A stretch of 54,654 nt of DNA from a virus (taxonomy: Duplodnaviria > Caudoviricetes), in IMG/VR virus record IMGVR_UViG_3300044515_000008, positions 1 through 54,654 of that record. One strand, written 5' to 3'. The position numbers and the translations under genes were made by a program. The notes under the pieces are model-generated. The model worked only from the letters and a program-made list of their open reading frames with translations. It ran no database searches and was not told the DNA's origin. Of the stretch, positions 17,106-45,261 are shown piece by piece (within the stretch, counting starts at the first letter, position 1; the number at the start of each line of letters is the position of its first letter).

Positions 17106-17510
17106 CTAGGGACTTTCTGCGTGGATGTGCCGGAAATTGGATTGACCCCGAACTGTCTTTGCTCGGTGCGGCCGGTCCGGATTGTGTACGGGCTTCGGTA
17201 GGACCCTTGTGGGCGCCGATGAGGACATGGGAACGACCTTGATAAGATCTTTGTCCGCCAGATTAACCGTGATCGGCATGACCTGGTCGCCTGAATCCCA
17301 ATGGTCTACAAAGGTGCGCGCGTTTGGTGGCGTCTGGTATTCGTAGCGAACGCGGGTCTTAACATCGCTGAATCGGATCTTGTCGCGGTCCACTTTGATG
17401 CATCGCGCATTGGGATACGCATATGCTATCGCGTCGGCAATCGCGCACTTGCCTTTATTCTGGCGCTGGGCTAACTCAATGGCCGCTTGCCGGACCCTTG
17501 CTTTGATCAT
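17106..17510 (-). CDS. Hypothetical protein
   Basis: CAIADAI...I.VD...IRF....RY.Y.TP; RBS present. Confidence 0.65.
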   Translation of the reverse strand: MIKARVRQAAIELAQRQNKGKCAIADAIAYAYPNARCIKVDRDKIRFSDVKTRVRYEYQTPPNARTFVDHWDSGDQVMPITVNLADKDLIKVVPMSSSAPTRVLPKPVHNPDRPHRAKTVRGQSNFRHIHAESP

Positions 17511-18129
17511 GCTGCGTTCCCTTTTCCAGGTAGCTAATGACTCTTTCCAGTACCTCCAGCAATAGCGCGCGCTCCCCGGTGGTCAATTCATCATTGGCCA
17601 ATTCCAGGGCTATGGACTCCAACTCGACAAGCCGATCAACAATCGCCGGTCGAGTGGGCGCCGAGCACGTCGGTTCTGTAGTGGTGGCGGTAATAGGTGG
17701 CGGCGACTCCACAAAGGTGCCGTCAATGACGATAGGTGGACGCGGGATAGGTGCATGTGGCATAGGCGGGTACGTCTTGCCGTCGAGCCCCCGGGTGTCA
17801 CCAGGTGTCCCGTTTGGGACACCTGCAATGTCCCTGCCTACGGTGCTTCTGCCTGCCCCGGTGGCCGCCGCAATCGCTCGCACTGATAGCCCCGCTTCAC
17901 TCAAGGTGGCTACGGCCTCACGTCGTCGCTCACGCGGTAGCCGGAGTGCGGCCCCGTGGAATTCCGCGACGCAATAGTCGTCCCACGATTCGTAGCCTAG
18001 TGCCTGGTCGGCCCGGCCGTAGTAAGCGGATTTAATCTTTGTCCACGCCATATCGATATGGCCATAGATTTGCGCGGTTAGTTCGCGCGCTTCATTCTCG
18101 GTGAGTAGCCGTAGATCCGGTTCATTCAT
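17476..18129 (-). CDS. HTH DNA-binding protein
   Basis: LGYESWDDYCVAEF...GLSVRAIAAATGAGRSTVGRDI...GLDGKTY. Confidence 0.75.
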   Translation of the reverse strand: MNEPDLRLLTENEARELTAQIYGHIDMAWTKIKSAYYGRADQALGYESWDDYCVAEFHGAALRLPRERRREAVATLSEAGLSVRAIAAATGAGRSTVGRDIAGVPNGTPGDTRGLDGKTYPPMPHAPIPRPPIVIDGTFVESPPPITATTTEPTCSAPTRPAIVDRLVELESIALELANDELTTGERALLLEVLERVISYLEKGTQHDQSKGPASGH

Positions 18130-18368
18130 CGGCGCGTCTTTCGCGGACGTCTCGGGGAAGGTGGCATTACGCATATCCCCAGTCTCCATATTACGTGGTG
18201 CACTTCGCGGGTGGTCGCATTGAAATACCAGGCCGCGTAGCCGCACTCCGAACACGTTGTGCCGATCAACGGCAATACCGTATCCTCTTGGCCCGCGCCT
18301 TGCGGCCTTTCCATCTTGACCCGTGGTTGACGGACCACCGGGGAATACGGGGTTTTGCGCTTACCCAT
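18126..18368 (-). CDS. Hypothetical protein
   Basis: Coupled ORF with CSECG. Confidence 0.5.
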   Translation of the reverse strand: MGKRKTPYSPVVRQPRVKMERPQGAGQEDTVLPLIGTTCSECGYAAWYFNATTREVHHVIWRLGICVMPPSPRRPRKTRR

Positions 18369-19440: not shown

Positions 19441-19830
19441 ATGACAGATCTACAGTGGCAAGCTCTCGGCCACGCCGTGGCGTACCGGCTTGACGAACTC
19501 GGCTATAGGAGTGTCGCAAAATTCGTCGATCAATCCGGCACCGACTTCTCAATCAAAACAATTCGCCGTCTTGTGAATGGCGGCAAAGTCAGCCGGTCGA
19601 CTCTGATCAATGTCGAAAAGTATTTGTTCTGGGGACCCGGTTCAATGGATGCGATCTTAGCGGGAAAGAAGCCATTCCCAAAGAAGGTCGAACCGGTCAC
19701 CGATGATGAACGCATACTGTGGGATACGCTCGTTCAACTCAACGTGGACCAGATTGACAGGGTGGAACATATCGCATTGTTCCGCGCGCACGCGAGTAAG
19801 TCTGACTCGGCCGAAAGTGCGGGTGCGTGA
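19441..19830 (+). CDS. Putative immunity repressor (XRE-like HTH)
   Basis: LG.AV..R..ELG..S...FSIKTIRRLVNG..VSRSTL..VE..L.W.PGS..AILAG typical of actinophage repressors; start could be 19372. Confidence 0.7.
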   Translation: MTDLQWQALGHAVAYRLDELGYRSVAKFVDQSGTDFSIKTIRRLVNGGKVSRSTLINVEKYLFWGPGSMDAILAGKKPFPKKVEPVTDDERILWDTLVQLNVDQIDRVEHIALFRAHASKSDSAESAGA

Positions 19831-21011
19831 TGGCCTGGACAACGAAGAACACCAAAGGCGAATTCCGCGCACTGTACCGCGACCCTGCGGGTAAGGCGCT
19901 CACCGTAAAGGACAGCAACGGCGACACCGTTTACTACCCCGGCAAGCGTGCCGCTATGGCCGCTGGTCGCGATGCCGAGTCGACGGCCCGCCGCAAGGCA
20001 CCGCAACGCACAACCACCGGCGGCGATATTCCGTGGGGTGATTGGTGGGACCAGATCGGCGGCAACCGCCACAAGACCAGCGACGGTGACGCTAACGAAA
20101 AGATCGTTGTCGAAAAGCATATCCGCCCGACGTGGGGTACAACGCCGCTCAACCGCATTACCAACCATGACATTAAGGAATGGATTAAAGAGCTAGCGCT
20201 CAAGCACTCCCCGAAGTACGTCGAATACATTTACTATATTTTGAAGGTCAGCCTAGACCTCGCCGTCGATGAGAAATACGGCGTGCTCGACGCAACACCA
20301 TGCACCGCGAAAATGGGCCTGCCTAAAATCGTAAAGAAGGCAATGCCCTATATCACCGATGCGGATATCGAACTGTACCGCGTGCACGGCCTACGCAAGG
20401 ACTACCTAGCCGTACTCGAATTCGCTTACCAAAGTGGCATGCGGCCTAGCGAAGTTTGCGGGCTGCACACGGAAGCAATCAATTGGGATACCGGGTGGTG
20501 CTATGTCGCCAACTCACTTGTACCGGGAATGATGGCAATCCGGCCGTTCACCAAAAACGGCGAAACCCGGCCCGCTCCGCTTATCGACCAGGCACTCAAG
20601 CTAGTTGTCGCCGCACTGGACGGCCGCGAACTACGCAACGGGTGCGGCCTTGAACACCTCGACGGCAAGCCATGCGCGGACGACCTGATTTTCCGCACCG
20701 TACGCGGAGCACCGATCACCCCCCGCAATCTCGCGCAAGCCATGCGGAACGTAGCGAAGAAAGGTGGATTCAAAGGCAAGTCCCCATACGCGGCTCGACG
20801 CGGCGCGGCAACGGCCGCCATTGTCGGCGGTGCCCCACAACTCGACGTCGAGAAAGGTCTAGGTCACGCCAACCTTGACGAGACGCGCGGGTATCACCAG
20901 ATGACACCCGAAGTGCGCAACCGCCTGCAAACCGCGCGCGACGCGGCAAGCGCCGCACCGGCCGCACCGGCATTGACCATTGTCCGCCCGAACACCACCC
21001 ACGCGGCATAA
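19827..21011 (+). CDS. int: Tyrosine integrase
   Basis: GMRPSE (R), TKNG (K), YAARR, LGH, RGY (Y) catalytic motifs; N-terminal arm-binding and SAM-like regions. Confidence 0.9.
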   Translation: MMAWTTKNTKGEFRALYRDPAGKALTVKDSNGDTVYYPGKRAAMAAGRDAESTARRKAPQRTTTGGDIPWGDWWDQIGGNRHKTSDGDANEKIVVEKHIRPTWGTTPLNRITNHDIKEWIKELALKHSPKYVEYIYYILKVSLDLAVDEKYGVLDATPCTAKMGLPKIVKKAMPYITDADIELYRVHGLRKDYLAVLEFAYQSGMRPSEVCGLHTEAINWDTGWCYVANSLVPGMMAIRPFTKNGETRPAPLIDQALKLVVAALDGRELRNGCGLEHLDGKPCADDLIFRTVRGAPITPRNLAQAMRNVAKKGGFKGKSPYAARRGAATAAIVGGAPQLDVEKGLGHANLDETRGYHQMTPEVRNRLQTARDAASAAPAAPALTIVRPNTTHAA

Positions 21012-21026
21012 AGGAGGTTGACCGCA

Positions 21027-22199
21027 ATGCCCAGAGAATCCCGCGCGACGAAAGACATATTCAGAAACCTGTCCCACGGCGATGGAATGTGGGAATTAGT
21101 CGGCGAGAAATTCATCATGACCAGCGTTGAAGCATTCCGCAAAGACGCACGTAGCTATCTCGGCGACCAGACGGAATTGAGGTCAAGTACGCTCGACTCA
21201 CCGGATGTCGATTGGTATTCAATCTGGCGCTACTTCAAAACCGGTGTACCCCTTGCCGACGATGGCCCGTGGTCCCGCTATCTCCCATGCGAAACATGCG
21301 GCGCCGAATACGAACGACCGTGCCTAAGCATGAAGTCATCCGGCCGACGGCCCATCGCTCAACCCCACGATGGCCGCCACTTCGTAGGCCAGTACGTATC
21401 GGGCTCGACAGTGGACACCGACGCACCGGCGCACGCCGACACGGCGACCACCGAACCGGCCCCGGCAAACCCTGCCGTCGTCGAGCACGCCGAACCGGCC
21501 ACGATCACCCGGACACGCAAGCCCCCCGCCGGTTGGGACCGGTCCGCGCACCGCACCCCGTGGTACGTCCTAGCCGACGGTGAGTATGTGGGCTACGCCG
21601 ACCGCACGAGCGCGGACGGCTGGACGTGGTTCACCGCGCACACGATGGACGGCACACCGGTGGCGAACACGCGCCGCAAGCCGGGGCAAGACGAGTGGCG
21701 TTTCTCACACCTAGCCGGGGCTGAGATGGCCCTAGCGGGCCGCACGGCCACGGGCACGGCACAACCGGCCACCCGGCCCGGCCACGCCGACACGGCCACG
21801 CTCACCGGCCACGCCGACAACGGGCACGAGGTGGACGCCACCGACGACACGGCCACCCGGGCAGCGATCGGCCGGGCACACCGCGCGGACACGGTAGAGG
21901 CCCCGCTAGCCGGGTTCCCGGCCATGTTGTGGCGGTCCGCGTGTACGTGCCGGTGGGTGAGCGACCGATACGACGACAAGCGGACGGCCGGGCGCGCCCA
22001 CGATCGCCACGTCATGGACGTGCTCACGGCCGCCGGGTCTGTAGCGGAACCTGTAGCAAAGTCCTCCGGGAAGATTGCTACAGGTTCCGCAAAGCGGCCC
22101 GCAAAAATGCCCGCTGACCAGCGGAAGTATCGTCACAATGTCGATCATGCCCGAACACTGCCGGAAACCCGTTTTACCAGGTCAACGATTTATGCATAA
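21027..22199 (+). CDS. Multi-domain Zn-finger protein
   Basis: AAGGAGG RBS; CETCGA...PC...H.GR and WRSACTC.W...H..H motifs. Confidence 0.65.
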   Translation: MPRESRATKDIFRNLSHGDGMWELVGEKFIMTSVEAFRKDARSYLGDQTELRSSTLDSPDVDWYSIWRYFKTGVPLADDGPWSRYLPCETCGAEYERPCLSMKSSGRRPIAQPHDGRHFVGQYVSGSTVDTDAPAHADTATTEPAPANPAVVEHAEPATITRTRKPPAGWDRSAHRTPWYVLADGEYVGYADRTSADGWTWFTAHTMDGTPVANTRRKPGQDEWRFSHLAGAEMALAGRTATGTAQPATRPGHADTATLTGHADNGHEVDATDDTATRAAIGRAHRADTVEAPLAGFPAMLWRSACTCRWVSDRYDDKRTAGRAHDRHVMDVLTAAGSVAEPVAKSSGKIATGSAKRPAKMPADQRKYRHNVDHARTLPETRFTRSTIYA

Positions 22200-23215: not shown

Positions 23216-23800
23216 CTAGGACTGTGCGGACAGTTCCGCTATCAGATGTCTCGCGTGCTCGTCTTCGGGGGTGCCGCTATCTGTGTACCGGTCGCCTACC
23301 CATGAACACGAACACAATGCGCGCCACGTCATCAAGCCCCCTATCGTTTCCGGGGTAATGCTGCGCTTGTGGCCGGGGGCCGTCTCGACCCTCGCGCGAG
23401 TGCGGGTGATCGGGATCACCGACGCCCGGCCGGTGGGCGCCTCGATCCGCTCGCGTCCCTTATGGACACGGGCAAGAATCTTGCCGTGGTCATTGACCGA
23501 CAAGCACGCTTTCCCTGCCCGCTGAAAGCACACGCGGCACTTCCCGAACTCTGACCAATAGTCGTCGTCGGGGGTGGCGTCCACCGTGGCGGGCTCGTCG
23601 AGTATGGGGGCCGGTCGGAGTGGCGTGGGGTCGATCGGTTCGGGTGCGGGGCCGTCGACGTGCGGCCGTCCCTTGTGGTGGCGTAGTAGTTCCTTGCCCT
23701 TGCTGGCGTTGTTGCTTATGCCGACGCACGGGCGGGCCGGTCGGGCGCCGCACGTATCGCACGTGTCAAGATCAACGGCACGGTCTAGTATTGCTTGCAT
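23216..23800 (-). CDS. Multi Zn-finger protein, paralog of 21027-22199
   Basis: Two CxxC...C...HKGR units plus WRALCSC.W...H..H. Confidence 0.7.
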   Translation of the reverse strand: MQAILDRAVDLDTCDTCGARPARPCVGISNNASKGKELLRHHKGRPHVDGPAPEPIDPTPLRPAPILDEPATVDATPDDDYWSEFGKCRVCFQRAGKACLSVNDHGKILARVHKGRERIEAPTGRASVIPITRTRARVETAPGHKRSITPETIGGLMTWRALCSCSWVGDRYTDSGTPEDEHARHLIAELSAQS

Positions 23801-23837
23801 CGCAGTAGGTCCCTTAGCATCTATTCGATTGTGCTTG

Positions 23838-24026
23838 TTAGCGATTGGCGCTGGCGTCTTTCTCCACGGCCGCGCCGATTGCGGCAATTATCATGGTGAG
23901 GACCAGGCCATACACCATGTAATGCCATTGATCTAGCGCCACCCAGAGAACGATGCCCGCGCCGAGTGCTGTACTGGTCAGCGCGGCGAAAACTTTATTC
24001 GTCGTCACTTTCACTGTCACCGTCAG
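23838..24026 (-). CDS. Small two-TM membrane protein
   Basis: Two hydrophobic segments; start approximate. Confidence 0.55.
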   Translation of the reverse strand: MTVTVKVTTNKVFAALTSTALGAGIVLWVALDQWHYMVYGLVLTMIIAAIGAAVEKDASANR

Positions 24027-24485: not shown

Positions 24486-24956
24486 TCATAAGGCGCGGAC
24501 TAGTTCCAAAACGCGCGCGAGTAGCTCCGACGACGGATAAGAACCCGAGTCCCGGACGGGCCTTGCCGTCGTTTGCACGTGCACGCGCACGGGCAAAGGC
24601 TCGACCGGTTTCGGTGGCTGCTGCTGCTCAAGCTCTTTTGACACGCGAGTCCGCTTTCTTGTTGTGGGTGGCAGGCCGTTTCCGCCGGTCGGCCGAATCC
24701 GGACACCCGCGTTAATGAGCATCCGGCGCGTCTTGCTGTACGTGTAGCCAAAGGCTTCTGCTACCGCGCGGATAGTCTGCCCTGCGCGGTAGGCGTCGGC
24801 CATCCCCGGTGGGATGATCGGAACGTCTGAACGTATTGCGACCCTATGCCGCACCAGTATTTCGCGCACACGTGGACGTGACATTTCGTAGCGCGCTGAA
24901 AGTTTATTCATTGATTCGCCCTGCTGATAGAGGTCGACTAGTTCGTCGTCATCCAT
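24486..24956 (-). CDS. Tandem HTH DNA-binding protein
   Basis: Two LY..G.S...L...Y..S...VR..L...GV.IR repeats. Confidence 0.8.
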   Translation of the reverse strand: MDDDELVDLYQQGESMNKLSARYEMSRPRVREILVRHRVAIRSDVPIIPPGMADAYRAGQTIRAVAEAFGYTYSKTRRMLINAGVRIRPTGGNGLPPTTRKRTRVSKELEQQQPPKPVEPLPVRVHVQTTARPVRDSGSYPSSELLARVLELVRAL

Positions 24957-26856: not shown

Positions 26857-27705
26857 ATGACGGACACAATCCAGAGTCGGCTACTGGGGCAAAAGCTGAG
26901 GTCAGCGCGCGAAAACGCGGAGCTTGCCCGTGAGGAAATGGCTACGCTGCTCGGGGTCCAGCCGCCGACGGTCAGCCGGTGGGAGCGCGGTAGCCGCAAG
27001 ATCAGCAACCGCGACCTGGTCCGTTACCTCCAGCACTGCAATGCGACCACCGAAGAAATGGACGAATTGCAGTTGCTTGCGGACGACTCGGAAGTATCCG
27101 TGTGGATAAAGTTTCAAGCGCACACCGATCAAAGTCTAATCATGGCCGCCATCCTTCGAGCCGAAGAGCAGGCAATCCGTATCACGTACTTGTGCAACGG
27201 AACTGTGCCGGGGCTTCTGCAAGCGCCCGCCTATTCGCGCGCCATTATGCAAACCGCCGGTGTATCCGATGACGTAGCTAGGCAGCGCGTAGCCGAACGG
27301 CAGGGACGCGGGCAAGTTATAAGACGTCGAGATACCCCAGTCCAGCTAATTGCAATACTTGATGAGTCGGTCATTCATCGCCAAGTGGGCGGCCCGGAAA
27401 CATTCTTGCAGCAACTACGATATCTCGTGGAGTGCGCAGAGCTTCCGAACGTCACCCTTAATATCGTTCCCTTTACGGCAGGATGGACACAGCTACAACG
27501 TGGACAGTTTTTCATCATTGATTCAGCTGACACTAAGTCGGTAGTGCATCAAGAGATCCAAGATGCGAGCTTCTTTTTCAATGATGCCGTTCACGTCGAC
27601 GACGTCTATCGTCATGCCGTCGAGGAAACGAAAGGGAAGGCATTGAGTCACGAAGACTCAATCCGACTCATTGTTAATCAGATTGAGAAATTGGAGAAGG
27701 AATAA
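26857..27705 (+). CDS. XRE-family HTH + DUF5753 regulator (Scr1/WhiJ-like)
   Basis: LG.KLR.ARE...VSRWERG HTH; VPGLLQ.PAY.RA, R..RQ, ILDESV.HR.VGG, QL.YL, PNVTL.IVPF. Confidence 0.92.
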   Translation: MTDTIQSRLLGQKLRSARENAELAREEMATLLGVQPPTVSRWERGSRKISNRDLVRYLQHCNATTEEMDELQLLADDSEVSVWIKFQAHTDQSLIMAAILRAEEQAIRITYLCNGTVPGLLQAPAYSRAIMQTAGVSDDVARQRVAERQGRGQVIRRRDTPVQLIAILDESVIHRQVGGPETFLQQLRYLVECAELPNVTLNIVPFTAGWTQLQRGQFFIIDSADTKSVVHQEIQDASFFFNDAVHVDDVYRHAVEETKGKALSHEDSIRLIVNQIEKLEKE

Positions 27706-27899
27706 TGTCGTCACTCCCCACAAATTGGCGCAAGTCGATTCGCAGCAATGAGAAGGCCGATTGTGTCGAGGTTGCGAACGACTCGGAAACCGCGCTCGTT
27801 CGCGACACGAAAGACCGCGCGGCGGGTTACCTCACCCTTAGCCCGACCGCGTTCGTTGCGTTCGCGGCATCGATCACAAAGGGCCACCCCGCACCCTAG
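27705..27899 (+). CDS. DUF397 domain protein (Scr2/BldB-like)
   Basis: WRKS.RS....CVEVA....VRDTKD; TAATG coupling to the XRE gene. Confidence 0.92.
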   Translation: MSSLPTNWRKSIRSNEKADCVEVANDSETALVRDTKDRAAGYLTLSPTAFVAFAASITKGHPAP

Positions 27900-27913
27900 G
27901 TAGCCCACAGACG

Positions 27914-29748: not shown

Positions 29749-29957
29749 ACCTTCCGTTTCTTTTTGCCTGTAAGAGTGGTCGCCGCTACGCGACTAGCGA
29801 ACCAAAGGCTAAACATTTCGATTGCGAAACATGCAACTATGTACAGATACGCATTGGCGATTAGGTGGACGTTGGCGGCAAGTATGGTGTTCACCGTCAT
29901 ACCAATGAACACCATTGCAAATAGTTCGTAGCGTGGCTGTCGTGTCACTGTGCCCAC
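29745..29957 (-). CDS. Small two-TM membrane protein
   Basis: Two hydrophobic segments, basic tail. Confidence 0.6.
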   Translation of the reverse strand: MGTVTRQPRYELFAMVFIGMTVNTILAANVHLIANAYLYIVACFAIEMFSLWFASRVAATTLTGKKKRKV

Positions 29958-30355
29958 GGCCGGTACTTGATCGGCGCTATGTCGTGTCCGTCTTTCACGT
30001 CGACCATATCGAATCTCATGAGCGGGTACTGTTCGCGAAACTCGCGCATGCGGTCAACGATGAACTCCTTATCGGGGCTCGACGATGAATCCGTGCGATA
30101 CCACACGCGGCCCCGTTCGCCCTTGACGATTACGGCCCATTGCACCGGGGCTGTCAGCTCGGCGATACGGGCGCGCAACTCGTTATTTTCCTCTTGCAGC
30201 TCGGCTAGCGCGGCGGCCCTATCGGCGCGAATTTGTTCACCCATTTCATAGCGGTCGCCGCCGAACCATTCGTCAAGTTCTTCTGGCGTCCACTCCCGTC
30301 GGTGGTCGCGGATCGGCTCTTCGCCGACGGATTGAGCCATTGTCATATCGTGCAT
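29945..30355 (-). CDS. Hypothetical protein (cassette gene)
   Basis: Preceded by the conserved leader and GAGG RBS. Confidence 0.7.
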   Translation of the reverse strand: MHDMTMAQSVGEEPIRDHRREWTPEELDEWFGGDRYEMGEQIRADRAAALAELQEENNELRARIAELTAPVQWAVIVKGERGRVWYRTDSSSSPDKEFIVDRMREFREQYPLMRFDMVDVKDGHDIAPIKYRPWAQ

Positions 30356-30437
30356 GGTGCCTCTTTTCGTTGTCTCTTCGCTGGCGTGCCCTAGCCGGAT
30401 ACGTGAATCCGTGCCCGGCTTTCCCGGGTGCTAGGGC
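30356..30437 (-). repeat. Structured leader repeat copy 1
   Basis: GCCCTAGC-A-CCCGGGAAAGCCGGG-CA-CGGATTCACGTATCCG-GCTAGGGC..CCAGCGAAGAGAC..GAGGCACC-ATG. Confidence 0.9.
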
Positions 30438-30447
30438 GGTTGTCTAG

Positions 30448-30687
30448 CTAGTCTTCGTCCCACGATTCACCGGCATACGTGGGGTCGAAATCGGCCGGTG
30501 GCAGGCTGCCCGGAGTGTCGTATCCGGGATAGCGCGAGCTGACATCTGCGTGCACTTTGTCCGTGCGCACCTCGTGTATGCGCTGGTGAGTCTCGCAACG
30601 TGCGCTCACCGTGGCGCCAGAACGTGAACGGTGTTCCTGAATCTCGCCGTCGCAACCGCCGTCGCGCTCTTCGATGCATTCCAACAT
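30448..30687 (-). CDS. Hypothetical protein
   Basis: GGAAGGA RBS; ends PADFDPTYAGESWDED. Confidence 0.7.
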   Translation of the reverse strand: MLECIEERDGGCDGEIQEHRSRSGATVSARCETHQRIHEVRTDKVHADVSSRYPGYDTPGSLPPADFDPTYAGESWDED

Positions 30688-30699
30688 AATCGTTCCTTC

Positions 30700-30924
30700 C
30701 TAGGCTTCGTTGTCTAGCGTCACGACGTCAAGCTCGAACACGTTCGCGTAGTACTCGTTCCGGTATTCGTCGGGCCATTCCACGAGTACCTTAGCCGTGC
30801 CGTTGTATTCGACACCCCGCGTCACGCTTACGAATTTCACAGTGTCGCCCCGGAAGTCGGTGACGGTGTCGCCTTCGGCCACTTCTTTGCCGGTCCGGGT
30901 ATCGGTCACGCGGTACTTTGTCAT
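30700..30924 (-). CDS. Hypothetical protein (cassette gene)
   Basis: Preceded by the leader repeat; GD.VTDFRG pattern. Confidence 0.75.
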   Translation of the reverse strand: MTKYRVTDTRTGKEVAEGDTVTDFRGDTVKFVSVTRGVEYNGTAKVLVEWPDEYRNEYYANVFELDVVTLDNEA

Positions 30925-31006
30925 GGTGCCTCTTTCCGTTGTCTCTTCGCTGGGCGTGCCCTAGCCGGATCTTGAATCCGTGCCCGGCTTTCCCGGGTGC
31001 TAAGGC
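30925..31006 (-). repeat. Structured leader repeat copy 2
   Basis: Same architecture; loop TTCAAGA. Confidence 0.9.
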
Positions 31007-31013
31007 GGGTAGT

Positions 31014-31277
31014 TCACATATCGTCGCGCGGGTAGTGGTTCGGTCCCTCGCACAGTGAAGCTGAAAGGCCGTGCGGGCAAGTGGGGTAAAGCCGTTCCGC
31101 CAGTAGCGGGTACAGCTTGCCGTCGAACGGGGATTCTTCAACCTCGCAAAAAGCGTGTGTGCTTGACCGGCCGTCCATAAAGGCAAGCACCCGGGCTTCC
31201 AAGTTGTCACCCTCGAAGGTGACCAGGTAGCCGTGTCGCGCGGCGCAATTGTGGGACTCGATTGTGATGGTGTCCAC
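31014..31277 (-). CDS. Hypothetical protein (cassette gene)
   Basis: GTG start after the leader; ends PTCPHGLSASLCEGPNHYP. Confidence 0.7.
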   Translation of the reverse strand: MDTITIESHNCAARHGYLVTFEGDNLEARVLAFMDGRSSTHAFCEVEESPFDGKLYPLLAERLYPTCPHGLSASLCEGPNHYPRDDM

Positions 31278-31360
31278 GGTGTCCTCTTTCGGTTGTCTCT
31301 TCGCTGGGAGCGCCCTAGCCGGAGCTTGCATCCGTGCCCGGCTTTCCCGGGTGCTAGGGC
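31278..31360 (-). repeat. Structured leader repeat copy 3
   Basis: Same architecture; loop TGCAAGC. Confidence 0.9.
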
Positions 31361-31366
31361 CGATTG

Positions 31367-31555
31367 CTACTGGCGTGCCTGAATCCGGTAACGAGCGGCC
31401 ATCGCGTATCCAACTTCGCCGTCGTCGGTTTCAATCCAGATACCGTCACCGTCCCGGTAGCGCGCGATGATCATTGTTCCACCGGCGAAAACGTCACCTT
31501 CGCGCAAGCTGTTGACCGACACGGTTTGTGTCTTGACTGCGGTTGCGTTCGTCAT
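31367..31555 (-). CDS. Hypothetical protein (cassette gene)
   Basis: ATG start after the leader; V.SL.EGD.F beta-rich pattern. Confidence 0.7.
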   Translation of the reverse strand: MTNATAVKTQTVSVNSLREGDVFAGGTMIIARYRDGDGIWIETDDGEVGYAMAARYRIQARQ

Positions 31556-31637
31556 GGTGCCTCTTTCCGTTATGTCTCTTCGCTGGGAGAGTCCTAGTCG
31601 GGGCTTGATACCCGCGCCCGGCAACCGGGGCTAGGAC
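31556..31637 (-). repeat. Structured leader repeat copy 4 (diverged, compensatory changes)
   Basis: GTCCTAG/CTAGGAC, CCCGG-TTG-CCGGG, CGGG-TATCAAGC-CCCG, then TCCCAGCGAAGAGAC. Confidence 0.85.
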
Positions 31638-31818
31638 CATTGTTCTCACGCTATTTTTTAGAACCCGGATTTTCCACTTCTGGCGTAGGTGGCGCGCGTC
31701 CCGTGTGAGACGCCTTCCGTGCCTAGCCGCGTGTCCCGAATTCCTGTTGCCGGTGCGGGGGCTGTAACCCCGGTGCCGGTCCCTCTTTCCTTGCACCCGT
31801 AGGGTATCCCGATTCGGG

Positions 31819-31834
31819 GGGTGTTTAAACACCC
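31819..31834. promoter_or_regulatory. Perfect 16-bp palindrome, candidate operator
   Basis: GGGTGTTTAAACACCC upstream of the cassette operon. Confidence 0.4.
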
Positions 31835-31889
31835 TAGCGGCAACGAACGTGTAACGATACCTAGCAACGGGTTGACACGAATGGGGGAC

Positions 31890-31935
31890 AAAAAAAATCC
31901 CCTGCCCATGACCCGTGAGGATCATGAACAGGGGA
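31890..31935 (-). terminator. Intrinsic terminator downstream of holin
   Basis: TCCCCTG..CATGA/TCATG..CAGGGGA stem followed by T8 on the minus strand. Confidence 0.75.
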
Positions 31936-32093
31936 CCCGCTCCACAGCGTCCCAGCGAAGAGACGAGAGAAGCAAGCACGAGGATACTAGGTCGAGCAGG
32001 ATCGATCTTCGAGCACACCGGTTTCGGCACATAACCGCAGGTCAGGACATGATCAACTCGGAGCCGGCAAAAGTTGTTGATCATGAAAATCCG

Positions 32094-32136
32094 GGCTCGT
32101 CGGCGGGGGCTCGTCGGCGGGGGCTCGTCGGCGGGG
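32094..32136. repeat. Short tandem repeat (GGCTCGTCGGCGGG x3)
   Basis: Directly visible 14-bp unit. Confidence 0.75.
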
Positions 32137-32155
32137 CCGGTGGCGTCCACCTGGC

Positions 32156-32440
32156 TTACGCGGCCGGATCGATCGGGGCAGGCAGCGTGACCGGCGGGGC
32201 CACGATGGGCGGCAGTGCAGTGGACGCCACGGGCAGCAGTGACGCCGTACCGGGGTCGCCGACACCACGGGCAACTAGACCTTTCAGCAGTGACACGAGC
32301 GCGGCCCCGCCACCGACACCTAGGGCCGCTTTCCAATCGAGGTGAAACGCGTCCACCCCGGACAGTCCGATCACCGATAGCGCGCCACCGACGAAACTCG
32401 ACACGACGCGTTCGGCTAGGTCTTTCAGGTAGGGCGACAT
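32156..32440 (-). CDS. Holin (r1t-like)
   Basis: DLAERVVSSF...DWKAALGV.GGAALVSLLK; follows the endolysin. Confidence 0.85.
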   Translation of the reverse strand: MSPYLKDLAERVVSSFVGGALSVIGLSGVDAFHLDWKAALGVGGGAALVSLLKGLVARGVGDPGTASLLPVASTALPPIVAPPVTLPAPIDPAA

Positions 32441-32452
32441 AGCGGGACCCCT

Positions 32453-33376
32453 TTACTTCGAGCGTTGCGGGAATGCGATGCCGAGTCGGCCGTTACCCTG
32501 ACTGGTGTAGTGAATGGCGATACCTTCGCACCCGTCGGGCAGCGCCCACACCGCACGCTGGCGATCTTTCAGCGTCCCGGCCGTGGGGTATCCGTTGCCG
32601 CCACTAGGGGCGACCAGCGTTGCACTGGCGCCAATGCAGATCAGCTGATAGTCGACGCTGCCCCACGTTGCATTGAGCACCACCCATTGCGAACCGATGA
32701 CGGAACTATTCGAACCAACCTCGATGGGGTATCCGATATAGTCACCGTTGGGTGCGAGTGGCAAAGTTTGAATAGCAATCCCGGTCATGATTCCATCCTC
32801 GACTGTCGGCGTAATCGCAGTGTCCCGCGTAGGCGTCCACCCGTTAACGTATTGATCGGTGTCGACGGTGCCGACGAAACCGGGCAGGTTCGCGGCCGAC
32901 GAATTTTGCCACAACACCAATTGTGGGTGACTCCACCCGAGCGAGCTGCCATACCGCGCTGCCCAGATATCGGTATTCCCGTCAATCCAATTGACGGGGT
33001 CGAGTGTCGTCGTGAGTAGGTATCTCGACGTGTACACGCGGAACGCTACCGTGCCGGTGCGCTTGCGGAATTGATCCCGGAACGCGCGGACCCATCCGGC
33101 CGTGGCGCTACTGTCCTCAATGTCCAGCACCGGCCGTAGCGTCCACGCACGCGTGAGATAGATATCCGCAAAATGATTAGCTTCCGTGACAGGGTTTCCC
33201 ATGTCGGAGAAATGGTAGGCGCCCACTTGCTTGACGTGCGCGTGATCCCAGTGCGACGACCATGCCGGGTCCACGCTCGTCGAGCCTTCCGTGATTTTGA
33301 TATAGAACCCGTCCGCGTCGCGAATAGCAGTCGGCCAATCAATCGAGCTTTGGTAGTGGCTGATATCAATGAGCAT
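32453..33376 (-). CDS. Endolysin, GH25 muramidase
   Basis: IDISHYQ, IKITEG, GAYHF, LDIE, VYT, LWQ, VDTD motifs. Confidence 0.9.
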   Translation of the reverse strand: MLIDISHYQSSIDWPTAIRDADGFYIKITEGSTSVDPAWSSHWDHAHVKQVGAYHFSDMGNPVTEANHFADIYLTRAWTLRPVLDIEDSSATAGWVRAFRDQFRKRTGTVAFRVYTSRYLLTTTLDPVNWIDGNTDIWAARYGSSLGWSHPQLVLWQNSSAANLPGFVGTVDTDQYVNGWTPTRDTAITPTVEDGIMTGIAIQTLPLAPNGDYIGYPIEVGSNSSVIGSQWVVLNATWGSVDYQLICIGASATLVAPSGGNGYPTAGTLKDRQRAVWALPDGCEGIAIHYTSQGNGRLGIAFPQRSK

Positions 33377-33387
33377 CGCGGGACCCT

Positions 33388-34395
33388 TTACTTGAGCGCC
33401 ATCCACCGGAAGGTTGTCGAACTCGAATACGTGCCGTCGAGCATGTCAAGGGTTGAACCGATTGTGCCACCACTTTTGAACACGCTAGTACGCGCACTCA
33501 CCGGGGTAAGCGGATTCGTGAAGTTGCCAGACACTACGGCGGACAGGCATGCGATAGACGCAATCGTCGACGCACCGGCGGTCAGTAGCGCCACGCAAAT
33601 TTGCATACCGGCCTCTAGCGTAATCGCGGTAAACGTCGCGCGTGCTACGGCGTCGGCAACCGTAAGGTTAATCGAGCCGGACGCGACCAGCGCAAGATCT
33701 CGCTGGGTATATCCCTTATAGATTCCCCACGTCGACGTGCCGCCAACCTGGGCAACGGTCGGGAATACCCGAATCTCGCTAATCGAATTCTCGGCTTGCG
33801 ACACCATGCGTTCGAGGTAAAGGAAACTCGCCGTCAAGGTAACCGTGCCGTTGCACTGCGCGCGAGACACCGACGAAAGCTTATCGGTGTAAAAGTTCTG
33901 GTCGTCCGTCACACACGAGTAGGGCACGCCACCGAATTGCCGGGCGTCCGTGACTTGCGCCGCGTCAATGGAAACGTCGGTAGCCGGAACCGCAATGGTC
34001 GCAAGGCTCACCTCGTACATTGCGGTATTCCGGGTGCACCCAATAGCAAGCCCGGAACCGGCGGTGCCCGTGAGCACGTCCACCACAATCTGATTAGCTA
34101 CGTAGTCAGCACGCGCCACGATACGATCAATCCTGGCAAGCGTCGCATGAGCGGTAGCAATGGGGACGATCTTTTCAATAGTGATCGTGCCCCATTCCCC
34201 TTCCATCCAAACCTCACCGGTCTTAACCTTTACCTGCATACCGGTCGAGTCGGCGTACACCAGCAATTCGTTAAGGACATTGCGGAGTACACCGGACACA
34301 GTGGGCCGTCGCATGATCTTTCGCCACGTGTCTTCACCGATCGAAGATCCCGGCCCCGAGTCAAACGGCGCGTAGACATCCATAAGCGTTGCCAT
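33388..34395 (-). CDS. Minor tail / receptor-binding protein
   Basis: PFDSG...W...GV...MQVKV..G...RIDRIV...YEVSLA.I.V...TDAR N-terminal domain. Confidence 0.8.
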   Translation of the reverse strand: MATLMDVYAPFDSGPGSSIGEDTWRKIMRRPTVSGVLRNVLNELLVYADSTGMQVKVKTGEVWMEGEWGTITIEKIVPIATAHATLARIDRIVARADYVANQIVVDVLTGTAGSGLAIGCTRNTAMYEVSLATIAVPATDVSIDAAQVTDARQFGGVPYSCVTDDQNFYTDKLSSVSRAQCNGTVTLTASFLYLERMVSQAENSISEIRVFPTVAQVGGTSTWGIYKGYTQRDLALVASGSINLTVADAVARATFTAITLEAGMQICVALLTAGASTIASIACLSAVVSGNFTNPLTPVSARTSVFKSGGTIGSTLDMLDGTYSSSTTFRWMALK

Positions 34396-42948: not shown

Positions 42949-45261
42949 CTATCCGCCTTTCATTGATACTGCTGGACGATCAACGTTGTGCATAGCCGAG
43001 ACGGCCCGATCCACAAGGGACATACGCGGTGCATCCCGATCCACGTCCGTCATGAACCCCACTTGCGATTTCAACGTCACGTCAAAGGCAACGGCTCCAA
43101 CGAGCGCGCAACCCGCAACGGTCGTGATCACGATTCGAGGATCGAACGCCGAACCGGCCGACGTGCTGCCACCGTCCGCAACGGACACCGCCGCGACACC
43201 GTCCACTGCGGAACCGGCCGACAACCCGGCACCGGCCGGGGCACCGACAGACGTACTCGTCGTCACCGTCGCGTCGAGCGCGGCACCGGAACCACTGGCC
43301 GTATCCGTCGGCCACACCGTCACGGTTGTGGCGTCCACCGGGGCAGCGATCCCGACCGCGTATCCAGCCGCAACGGCGACGAACGCAAACGTCACCACGG
43401 CCGGATCATCGGCCAGTACCGAACCGGCCGCGCCGGTGTCGAGCACGCCCGTGGCCGGAGTGGCGTCGAGCGCCGCGCCCGTGGCCGTCGAGCCCGTGTC
43501 TACCGCCACGGTGCCCGGGGTGGCGTCGAGCGCGGCGCCGGTCGCCGACGGCCCGGTGTCGACGGCCCCGATACCCGGGGCGATGTCGTCCGCTAGCGCA
43601 CCGCCAACGGCATTGACCGCACCAACAGAAACCGCGCCTTGCGGGTCCCCAGCTTGCCCGCTACCGGACGCTACGTCCGCCGGTGCCGTAGCGGCCGTGG
43701 ACGTCGTCACCGTGGCGTCAGCGGCGGAACCCGTGGCCGTCGAGCCCGTGTCTGCTGCCCCGTTGGCCGGGGTGGCGTCGAGTGCGGCGCCGGTTGCCGA
43801 CGGCCCGGTGTCGAGCACGCCCGTGGCCGGGGTGGCGTCGAGCGCCGCGCCCGTGGCCGTCGAGCCCGTGTCTGCTGCCCCGTTGGCCGGGGTGGCGTCG
43901 AGCGCGGCACCGGTCGCGGGTGCTACGTCCGCCGGTGCCGTAGTGGCCGTGGACGTCGACACCGTGGCGTCGAGCGCGGAACCCGTTCCGGCCGGGCCGG
44001 TGTCGAGCGCGCCGGTTGCCCCGGTGGCGTCGAGCGCGGCGGCCGTGGCCGTCGAGCCCGTGTCTGCTGCCCCGTTGGCGGGGGTGGCGTCGAGAGCGGC
44101 GCCCGTTGCCGACGGCCCGGTGTCGAGCGCGCCGGTAGCACCGGTGGCGTCGAGCGCGGCGCCGGTCGCGGGTGCTACGTCGGCCGGTGCCGTAGTGGCC
44201 GTGGCCGTCGACACCGTTGCGTCGAGCGCGGCGCCCGTAGCCGTCGAGCCCGTATCGAGCGCGCCGGTTGCTGGGGTGGCGTCGAGCGCGGCGCCGATCG
44301 CCGACGGCCCGGTGTCGAGCGCGCCCGTGGCCCCGGTGGCGTCGAGTGCCGCGCCGGTCGCCGTCGAGCCCGTACCCGCCGTGCCGGTAGCACCGGTGGC
44401 GTCGAGTGCGGCGCCGGTGGCCGTCGAGCCCGTGTCTGCTGCCCCGTTGGCCGGGGTGGCGTCGAGCGCGGAACCGGTCGCCGTCGAGCCTGTACCGGCC
44501 GTGCCGGTGGCGCCGGTGGCGTCGAGCGCGGCGCCCGTTGCCGACGGCCCGGTGTCGAGCGCGCCGGTGGCCCCGGTTGCGTCGGCGGTCGCGACAGTCC
44601 CGTCACCCTGTACCGCGTTGGCCGATGTTCCGCTAGCGCCAAGGACTTCGAGCGAAACGATGGCGTATTTCTGGCCGGTGGGTGCGGTGAGCCCGGTGGT
44701 TTTCGCACCGGCCGCACCGGCATCGGAGTAGTACGCGCCATAGTTCGTTTCGTCGCCGGTGACGTCGACGTACGTCACTTCGCTTGCCGCGACATTGATT
44801 GTCTGCCATGTACGGCTAGCGCCGGAAATTTCGTTCCAGTCGGACGTTGCCGTGACCACAATGGAGTTTGCTTGTGTTGTGGTCAGGGACAATGTCGGTG
44901 CGCCCGTGGTGTTTGTCTTCGCGGTCGCGCCGATGCCGGATGATCCGGAGAACCGTAGACAGTTGTAGCCCCATGACGTTGGGCTACCGGTAATCGCTTG
45001 TGACAGGGTGAACGTTTGCGAGGTTGGGCACGGTGCCGTCCACACCGAAACGCGGCAATATTGGTGTACCGCAACGTCTTGCTTGAGTGTGTAGGTGAGG
45101 CTGCCACCGGTAGGCGTCGCCGGTGTAAAGGCCGTGCCGTCTGGCGCAATGGTGAAGATCACCAGGACATCACCGGCGACTACCGTCACCGACTCGGTTT
45201 TCGGTGTGGTGCTACCGGTCCATGTTGTCTCGTATTTCGCGACGAACGTAGGTCCGGCCAC
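42949..45261 (-). CDS. Large Ala/Thr/Gly repeat virion protein (head fibre/appendage candidate)
   Basis: Beta-rich N-terminal domain then many ATGAALDAT-containing repeats. Confidence 0.75.
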   Translation of the reverse strand: MAGPTFVAKYETTWTGSTTPKTESVTVVAGDVLVIFTIAPDGTAFTPATPTGGSLTYTLKQDVAVHQYCRVSVWTAPCPTSQTFTLSQAITGSPTSWGYNCLRFSGSSGIGATAKTNTTGAPTLSLTTTQANSIVVTATSDWNEISGASRTWQTINVAASEVTYVDVTGDETNYGAYYSDAGAAGAKTTGLTAPTGQKYAIVSLEVLGASGTSANAVQGDGTVATADATGATGALDTGPSATGAALDATGATGTAGTGSTATGSALDATPANGAADTGSTATGAALDATGATGTAGTGSTATGAALDATGATGALDTGPSAIGAALDATPATGALDTGSTATGAALDATVSTATATTAPADVAPATGAALDATGATGALDTGPSATGAALDATPANGAADTGSTATAAALDATGATGALDTGPAGTGSALDATVSTSTATTAPADVAPATGAALDATPANGAADTGSTATGAALDATPATGVLDTGPSATGAALDATPANGAADTGSTATGSAADATVTTSTAATAPADVASGSGQAGDPQGAVSVGAVNAVGGALADDIAPGIGAVDTGPSATGAALDATPGTVAVDTGSTATGAALDATPATGVLDTGAAGSVLADDPAVVTFAFVAVAAGYAVGIAAPVDATTVTVWPTDTASGSGAALDATVTTSTSVGAPAGAGLSAGSAVDGVAAVSVADGGSTSAGSAFDPRIVITTVAGCALVGAVAFDVTLKSQVGFMTDVDRDAPRMSLVDRAVSAMHNVDRPAVSMKGG
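43420..44590. repeat. Intragenic ~60-78 bp tandem repeats
   Basis: Recurring GTGGCGTCGAGCGCGG core. Confidence 0.9.

Follow-up and report, generated by a model that had tools for sequence, protein, structure and literature searches.

Repeated, structured leaders ahead of unrelated small genes in one operon of a putative actinophage

Start-associated repeats of actinophages have been catalogued since 2011, and their function has not been demonstrated. In this study, we describe four copies of a leader of about 82 nt in a virus known from one IMG/VR record (IMGVR_UViG_3300044515_000008). The window analysed was the whole of this record, which is 54,654 bp long, about 91% complete and 59.9% G+C. 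The leaders lie in an operon of about eleven small genes that runs on the minus strand from 31555 down to 27896, starting just past the terminator of the lysis cassette. On our best reading, the closest described kinds of repeat are the start-associated sequences (SAS), with their extended form (ESAS), of Cluster K phages, and the CR3 and CR4 repeats of Cluster M phages. An initial annotation of this DNA had proposed repeated, structured, gene-proximal leaders ahead of unrelated small genes of one operon, and this description holds. We report the anatomy of the leaders and their register with the start codon, and we show that the tail is more strongly conserved than the fold, that promoter and terminator signals are lacking, and that a related phage has an analogous family.

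Pope et al. (2011, PMC3203893) describe the SAS as a 13-nt, asymmetric, near-invariant repeat at the starts of some non-structural genes. It holds the Shine-Dalgarno sequence itself, 3-7(9) nt from the start codon, and 11-19 copies are spread across a genome arm. About half of the copies have an upstream inverted repeat, and the orientation is the same for all but one, a reversed copy which does not stand at a gene start. The repeats go with unusually long intergenic gaps, are restricted to one phage group and have no explained function. In the right part of Mycobacterium phage Anaya, our search with the SAS consensus GGGATAGGAGCCC found 17 SAS, 16 forward and one reverse. The reverse copy (L185 34871-34883, record positions 59870-59882) is in the 385-bp spacer between gp96 and gp97, about 150 nt past a terminator-like hairpin, and would read as an anti-SAS in a rightward transcript.

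The ESAS is one imperfect inverted repeat of 15-17 bp, which a more recent paper on Adephagia (2024, PMC11373665) now reads as overlapping a SigA-like -35/-10 promoter. According to PMC7953290, the CR3 and CR4 repeats of Cluster M are found between many small genes with stem-loops upstream, and inserted genes bring a CR3 copy with them. A further comparison is offered by the PeSL elements of T4-type phages. As described in PMC2839356, these combine a strong sigma-70 promoter with a terminator stem-loop and lie beside small, non-essential genes of a plastic region, and a role as substrates of recombination has been put forward for them. A 2025 paper (Yasnaya_Polyana, PMC12699233) still calls for experimental verification of such repeats.

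Anatomy and fold of the leaders

All four leaders are on the minus strand and are co-oriented with their genes. Leader c1 occupies 30356..30437 (82 nt; 106.4 bits with R1, our covariance model of the element), c2 30925..31006 (82 nt; 114.5 bits), c3 31278..31360 (83 nt; 108.9 bits) and c4, the most diverged copy, 31556..31637 (82 nt; 86.8 bits). With the closing stem's first base and the last base ahead of the start codon as endpoints, these lengths agree with the four elements of about 82 nt, each ending at a start codon, that had been noticed initially. The start codon is ATG after c1, c2 and c4, and GTG (31277) after c3. It had also been correctly observed that three of the elements begin 6-10 nt past the previous stop codon. 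The distances are 10, 7 and 6 nt for c1, c2 and c3, and the preceding open reading frames (ORFs) end at 30448 (79 amino acids, aa), 31014 (87 aa) and 31367 (62 aa), respectively. Leader c4 has no gene upstream and precedes the operon's first gene.

The first three copies are 92-95% identical to each other, and exact runs of about 27-30 nt are common to the copies. When R1 was run with filters off, the four copies scored 87-115 bits and the next match in the 54.6-kb window, an opposite-strand partial copy, scored 15.7 bits. Each leader ends in a near-invariant tail of about 33 nt, which is purine-rich and almost free of U. The order within the tail is the 13-mer CCAGCGAAGAGAC, AAC, the Shine-Dalgarno sequence GGAAAGAGG, CACC and the start codon. 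The 13-mer ends 16-18 nt before the start codon, with a separate GGAAAGAGG in between. There are five exact sites of the 13-mer in the window, four in the leaders and one on the plus strand at 31952-31964. With up to two mismatches there are six matches against 1.29 expected, a number reached by none of 100 shuffled sequences.

Upstream of the tail, each leader is predicted to fold as a Y-shaped three-way junction with stems of 8 bp (P1), 5 bp (P2) and 4-5 bp (P3), and the RNAalifold consensus has 17 pairs. P1 is formed by GCCCUAGC and GCUAGGGC, P2 by CCCGG and CCGGG, and P3 by CGGA(U) and (A)UCCG, with P3 running straight into the 3' strand of P1. This is the same fold as described earlier, with a closing stem, a CCCGG/CCGGG hairpin and a second hairpin. 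The compensatory changes that had been pointed out in c4 are real: a C-G pair is replaced by U-A in P1, and an A-U pair by G-C in P3. Leader c4 has five stem substitutions in total, four of which make up the two compensated pairs, while one breaks the last P1 pair (C.A). It retains 16 of the 17 pairs despite about 25% divergence of the folded part, and the P2 stem is kept though its loop has 5 nt in c1-c3 and 3 nt in c4. In c2, there is one U.G pair in P1. When the partner columns of the alignment were slid against each other, pairing fell from 98.5% to 18-52%.

Divergence is not evenly distributed along c4. Compared with the other copies, 11-12 of 46 aligned positions differ in the fold, and 0-1 of 29-30 in the tail (Fisher p 0.002-0.02). 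As the drift of c4 is concentrated in the fold and the tail is unchanged, the tail would be read by its sequence and the fold, if it is read, by its shape. In a local-folding model of the operon RNA, the 13-mer windows are at the 85th-94th percentile of predicted accessibility.

Several results weigh against selection on the fold. The observed covariation was matched in 37 of 500 column shuffles. The folding-energy z-scores of the copies are -3.8, -2.5, -1.7 and -0.04, and at -0.04 c4 has no stability beyond that of shuffled sequence. The copies number only four, and c1-c3 among them are 92-95% alike. For c1 and c3 the sense and antisense folds are almost equal in energy, and for c4 the antisense fold is the better one, so the window alone does not settle which strand folds. 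No homologue that would offer independent covariation was found in the viral, genome and metagenome collections that were scanned. The support for the structure is therefore suggestive, and the fold is plausible and not proven. Of the earlier statement that the structure appears selected, the part that stands is the retention of the stems through compensatory changes; the covariation behind it is weak.

A proposed post-transcriptional leader module and its counterpart in a relative

We propose, with moderate confidence, that the four elements are one post-transcriptional leader module in four copies, and that this module works in the small-gene operon's mRNA. Most likely, it provides unrelated accessory genes with a translation start that is standard, insulated and stabilised. 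The fold could insulate the ribosome-binding region from whichever gene precedes it, and could also mark or protect the 5' end of the RNA, which would be a primary end at c4 and processed ends at c1-c3. The tail could serve as a standardised landing site for ribosomes and as a common sequence tag for a shared regulator. Folding in the cell, processing of the RNA, and a nuclease or other factor that reads the elements would all belong to this scheme.

The genes preceded by leaders belong to four unrelated families. Behind c4 is a 62-aa orphan (31367..31555, minus) with no family match and no tblastn match in the phage collection. Behind c3 is the 87-aa gene (31014..31277, minus), which has homologues in Streptomyces, Mycobacterium and Arthrobacter phages (12 records, 35-44% identity). 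Leader c2 precedes a 74-aa gene (phrog_35924; 30700..30924, minus), and c1 precedes a 136-aa gene (29945..30355, minus). Between these two, the 79-aa gene (phrog_6230; 30448..30687, minus) has no leader and is separated from the preceding gene by a 12-nt spacer.

A role in transcription was not indicated by the motif searches. No -10 hexamer of the TANNNT type is present on either strand of c1-c3 (0 of 3), the promoter scan returned nothing within the elements, and there is no U tract or T run after the fold in any of them. Therefore, the elements are neither an ESAS-type promoter nor a terminator. No known RNA family was found in the full window at Rfam gathering scores, and no RNA-binding or RNase domain was recognised among the 69 ORFs scanned with Pfam.

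The leaders were searched for in other genomes in several ways. Among 50,697 phage records, neither megablast nor blastn matched the element; the six blastn matches were inside two of the small genes. Scanning viral contigs for a 14-mer yielded 115 stretches, of which the 80 listed had one match each and R1 scores of at most 21.7 bits. A 20-base tail pattern had no match in viral contigs, six single matches in genome contigs, which were non-actinobacterial metagenome-assembled genomes, and 12 single matches in metagenomes with R1 scores of at most 14.8 bits; the one that was inspected was unrelated sequence. A pattern of the structure had no match in viral contigs. The initial annotation had suggested a covariance-model search of actinophage and prophage genomes; across all matched loci the best R1 score was 21.7 bits, compared with 87-115 bits for the true copies, and no homologue was found.

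Relatives were also approached through neighbouring genes. The lysin alone recovered none, a lysin alignment led to 33 loci and a holin alignment to 7 loci, and R1 had no match in any of them. Comparable repeats were present in none of the loci checked (5 of 33 for lysin, 5 of 7 for holin) besides one IMG/VR record, G001 (loci L130/L160; 60,393 bp with terminal repeats), which is the only syntenic relative found. A search with an alignment of the 74-aa family also returned only G001, and a pattern of a conserved non-coding block returned G001 and one chance match in a coding region. Identity to G001 is 38% for the lysin, 64% for the holin and 44% for the phrog_6230 gene, and the 74-aa gene has three tandem paralogues there.

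R1 has no match in G001 (best E 0.95) and CCAGCGAAGAGAC is absent from it. G001 has its own four-copy leader family, which is found at the same operon position, after the lysin, the holin and a terminator. Each of its leaders consists of a conserved 5' box, a long hairpin, a second hairpin (CGUCC-AUUGC-GGACG), GAAAGAAGG and ATG. The inner stem of the long hairpin is wholly different among copies a/c, b and d, yet it is paired in all of them. For three of the four G001 leaders, the sense strand gives the better fold, which has 3-4 G.U pairs. The two families are alike in having four copies that each end at a start codon, with structure followed by a purine-rich ribosome-binding site, in the partial similarity of their tails (CGAAGAGA...AAAGAGG), and in having one copy behind the shared phrog_6230 gene. 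They differ in that the G001 leaders have a long hairpin and a second small hairpin and not a Y, although the leader of the first gene in G001 is itself Y-shaped. We take the retention of this layout between two phages, while the sequence has been replaced, as the best comparative evidence that the leaders may act as RNA.

Weak R1 matches in an unrelated, high-GC viral contig (L139/L140 8265-8324 and 9916-10001) consist of a hairpin, GAAGGGAC and a start codon. These may represent another leader family of the same general layout.

Alternative explanations

The tail could, alternatively, be the shared target of an antisense RNA, an idea we hold tentatively and consider unlikely. The plus strand carries a fifth, inverted, partial copy of the tail at 31950..31983, where TCCCAGCGAAGAGAC matches c3 and c4 at 15 of 15 positions and is followed by a purine-rich stretch. 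This copy has neither the Y-fold nor a start codon. In minus-strand sense it forms an anti-tail within the 3' untranslated region (UTR) of the late operon, that is, the structural and lysis operon, 11 nt upstream of the intrinsic terminator of that operon (31887..31938, minus; a 20-pair stem from 31938 to 31895, then a T8 run). The antisense RNA would be either the late-operon 3' UTR itself or a small RNA, about 90 nt long, that stops at the late terminator. Such a small RNA might have its -10 box in a TAGTAT hexamer of the TANNNT type (31984..31989, minus) 19 nt upstream of the anti-tail, although this hexamer was not flagged by the promoter scan. By pairing with the 13-mer and the Shine-Dalgarno sequence of the four leaders, the RNA would turn the small genes off, or insulate them from read-through, late in infection.

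A 15-nt perfect complement is thus present on a transcribed strand just before a strong terminator. In the predicted fold of 31980 to 31886, UUCGCU, the complement of the centre of the 13-mer, is exposed in a hairpin loop with the terminator next to it, although the anti-tail is partly paired in this fold. The closing pair of this hairpin is U.G in the minus strand and would be a C.A mismatch in the plus strand. In a scan of 32-nt and 40-nt partners over 5,462 minus-strand windows, the seven best duplexes were all on the four leaders and covered the Shine-Dalgarno sequence (-36 to -42 against a median of -17 kcal/mol); a comparison with 71-nt and 88-nt partners was uninformative since GC-rich windows scored equally. 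However, the fifth copy is homologous to the tail, which makes this complementarity automatic, and the duplex ranking cannot count as separate evidence.

An antisense target would account for a tail that is more conserved than the fold. The stretch of about 98 nt containing the fifth copy is missing from G001, which also lacks the tail. Against this, the arrangement is found in one genome only, and G001 has no comparable anti-leader: its own leader gave same-strand matches only, and no inverted copy of it was found there. A protein site in duplex DNA would also explain the reversed copy. In its fullest form, which we likewise regard as rather unlikely, the antisense reading would make the tail the address tag of a small regulon, in which one RNA from the fifth copy silences or insulates the four accessory genes with the Y-fold holding the tag in single-stranded form and making the message more stable. 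If this were true, the lone reversed SAS of Cluster K phages might act likewise, which would give a testable mechanism for repeats that have been unexplained since 2011.

It is quite improbable that the 13-bp asymmetric site, the P2 and P3 palindromes, or both, bind a phage regulator on double-stranded DNA and so silence the operon. Five exact 13-bp sites lie within 1.6 kb, and the opposite orientation of one of them would be irrelevant for duplex DNA. Several helix-turn-helix (HTH) proteins are encoded nearby, among them those at 24486-24956 and 26857-27705 (DUF5753), and another phage HTH protein is at 17476-18255. There are precedents in the stoperators of Cluster A phages (PMC9283540) and in the ESAS as reread in PMC11373665, where it is a promoter with an inverted repeat. 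Stoperators are asymmetric 13-bp sequences repeated in short intergenic gaps within operons, and they occur by the dozen genome-wide, with no fixed start-codon register and with a cognate monomeric repressor needed. The leaders resemble them in carrying 13-bp asymmetric repeats in short intergenic spaces of an operon. They differ in that their five exact sites all lie within 30372-31964, in one operon and not genome-wide, and in that their register with the start codon is fixed. No stoperator-type cognate repressor was recognised among the phage proteins, and a 156-aa HTH protein showed no sequence similarity to solved repressors (best E 0.1, an unrelated protein). Moreover, the whole 33-nt tail is conserved, beyond the 13 bp, and there is no promoter motif present to regulate. 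The symmetric changes in both arms of c4 and the altered spacing between them fit a base-paired stem better than a protein operator.

We also doubt that the repeats are chiefly homology blocks by which accessory genes are moved or swapped, as with the T4-type PeSL or the CR3 insertions of Cluster M (PMC2839356 and PMC7953290). The exact runs shared by the copies would offer homology for this, and the genes preceded by leaders are mutually unrelated, with homologues scattered in distant actinophages. The phrog_6230 gene common to both phages has a leader behind it in each, and the gene beyond that leader differs. However, there is a single relative, whose leaders are another sequence family, and a further break in synteny, between the 74-aa and the 79-aa gene, falls at a plain 12-nt spacer with no leader. 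No target-site duplications or terminal repeats flank the units, and homology alone leaves the retained fold and the fixed ribosome-binding register unexplained. Thus, the suggestion that unrelated accessory genes are shuffled between the repeats is in line with the junction behind phrog_6230 and at odds with the leaderless junction, and its support is thin. Recombination between copies is possible, and it looks like a side effect of the repeats and not their purpose.

An integron-type array was considered in the same context. An attC site is an imperfect palindrome at the 3' end of a cassette, with conserved core sites, and it is used by an integron-type integrase. The leader repeat is instead tied to the start codon downstream, and no core of the GTTRRRY type was seen at the borders by eye, with no formal attC model run.

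The initial annotation had likened the stack of P1 and P3 to the acceptor/T minihelix of a tRNA, at which RNase P, or RNase Z on the 3' side, would cut each element and release separate mRNAs. We consider this very unlikely. The 12-bp stack itself was described accurately, as P3 runs into the 3' strand of P1 to give 12-13 bp in all four copies, and the first P1 pair is G-C in all four. The T-loop pattern is UUCRANN. The T-like loop TTCAAGA that had been noted is present in c2, the only full fit to this pattern, and not elsewhere, where the loops are TTCACGTA, TGCAAGC and TATCAAG; c3 keeps U1, C3 and A5, and c1 (8 nt) and c4 do not fit. Loops differ in both sequence and length across the four copies. 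The base 5' of P1 (position -1) is C, C, G and G. In bacterial type A RNase P recognition, the discriminator base is directly followed by CCA, whereas in the leaders the first CCA is 4-5 nt past the stem (3' flanks ACGCCA, ACGCCCA, GCTCCCA and TCTCCCA). ARAGORN reported nothing in six runs, one standard run on the window and five on 30300-31700 (default, two relaxed thresholds and two mitochondrial D-armless modes), and an Rfam scan at E<=10 gave no tRNA match.

In this Rfam scan, c4 weakly matched the mascRNA-menRNA family (RF01684; 23.6 bits, E 0.07), whose members are processed by RNase P and RNase Z. The match is far under the gathering score of 42.5 and concerns one copy in four, c1-c3 being unreported at E<=10. 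The mascRNA/MEN-beta RNAs are similar in having an acceptor-like stem stacked on a T-like arm plus one more hairpin, and c4 aligns with the family end to end; they are dissimilar in that the family is eukaryotic, and the leaders are without a D region and have a misplaced CCA. G001, in turn, uses plain long hairpins instead. With no tRNA from ARAGORN or Rfam, a sub-threshold mascRNA match in one copy and the misplaced CCA, there is little support for the tRNA-minihelix reading. Nothing here singles out RNase P over RNase E, J or III. The early genes of T7 have repeated structures between cistrons, at which RNase III cuts the polycistronic mRNA into stable units, and this is the same mechanism that had been suggested for the leaders. 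However, the T7 signals are irregular hairpins of about 20 bp, and the helices of the leaders are 4-8 bp long in a predicted three-way junction.

It is also very improbable that the leaders are recent neutral copies, a good ribosome-binding site having been duplicated three or four times together with its intergenic region as genes were acquired, with no role for the fold; the 92-95% identity of c1-c3, the weak covariation statistics and the absence of the element from every other record searched agree with this, but c4 is about 25% diverged in its fold and still has 16 of 17 pairs and an unchanged tail, and G001 maintains an independent family with the same layout.

Genome setting and comparison with known repeats

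The virus reads as a temperate siphovirus of an actinobacterium, and the nearest cultured phage is distant (best terminase identity 26%). Terminase and tail genes (family matches including Sipho_Gp37 and a Dit domain) run on the minus strand from 54.6 to 33.4 kb and are followed, on the same strand, by a GH25 lysin (32453-33406, family match) and an r1t-type holin (32156-32440, family match). An identical lysin is encoded on a second contig, of 54,903 bp. A tyrosine integrase is encoded on the plus strand (19827-21011, phage integrase family matches). Near it, the proteins of 21018-22199 (plus) and 23216-23887 (minus) have sub-cut-off Pfam matches to the phage zinc-finger DNA-binding domain PF24623.

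The small-gene operon is closed by a terminator-like hairpin (27881..27906, minus) found in the terminator scan. Converging on its end is a plus-strand gene pair (26857-27899) in which an Xre-type regulator with HTH_31 and DUF5753 domains (26857-27705, Pfam) is directly followed by a DUF397 partner. This pair is typical of Streptomyces-like actinomycetes and is a hint to the host group.

Upstream of c4 is a non-coding stretch (31641..31800, minus) that contains blocks conserved at two places in G001, namely GGGACACGCGG ... CCAGA(A)GTG and a CCGGGG/CCCCGG hairpin. In G001, the blocks recur in two long intergenic regions (L130 1960-2140 and 8170-8350), each of which precedes a gene block. The stretch has no Rfam match; a promoter region, a 5' UTR and a small RNA are all possible readings of it. 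A TAGCGT placed by eye upstream of c4 as the operon promoter was dropped, being not conserved in G001.

Other repeats were seen in the window. Three tandem 14-nt units (CCGCCGACGAGCCC, minus strand) lie right behind the holin stop codon at 32095-32139, in the late-operon 3' UTR, and are followed by a 10-bp inverted repeat (CATGATCAAC/GTTGATCATG); the block AGTTGATCATGyyCTGACCTGC of this region is kept in G001. At 43150-44600 (minus), a 60-nt unit (20 aa) recurs in tandem about 15 times within a 770-aa ORF of the tail region (42949-45261). Two repeat pairs in the early region, 6799-6851/7323-7375 and 7096-7149/7500-7553, are 53-54 nt long and 89-92% identical. They span gene ends and overlapping starts, and look like a tandem duplication of two genes and not a leader family.

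Among the known repeats, the PeSL are similar to the leaders in being small repeated regulatory cassettes beside small genes, and differ in that the leaders have no promoter motif and no U tract or T run after the fold. With CR3 and CR4, as described in PMC7953290, the leaders share a position between small genes of one region with structure upstream; the likeness is one of description only.

The resemblance to the SAS is more detailed. In both, a 13-nt, near-invariant, asymmetric sequence is tied to gene starts, and the four co-oriented leader copies are accompanied by one reversed copy (31952-31964) with no start codon after it. They are different in that the 13-mer of the leaders is 16-18 nt from the start codon with a separate Shine-Dalgarno sequence, and in that there are four copies in one operon. 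The SAS consensus had no match in the window with up to two mismatches. The single inverted repeat of the ESAS also differs from the leaders, which have helices of 8, 5 and 4-5 bp and no -10 motif or promoter-scan match.

The case described here is small and clean, as four copies are present in one operon, the fold has drifted with compensation, the tail has not drifted, and there are no promoter or terminator signals. In two related phages the layout was kept while the sequence was replaced, which points to selection on the architecture, and the inverted copy sits where transcription would give an antisense RNA. The leaders are therefore a convenient model for determining whether such repeats act via RNA structure, via a shared trans-acting RNA or protein, or both. 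To summarise, the leaders are a real, phage-specific family of structured elements, and they are an analogue of the SAS and ESAS of Cluster K phages and not a member of that family.

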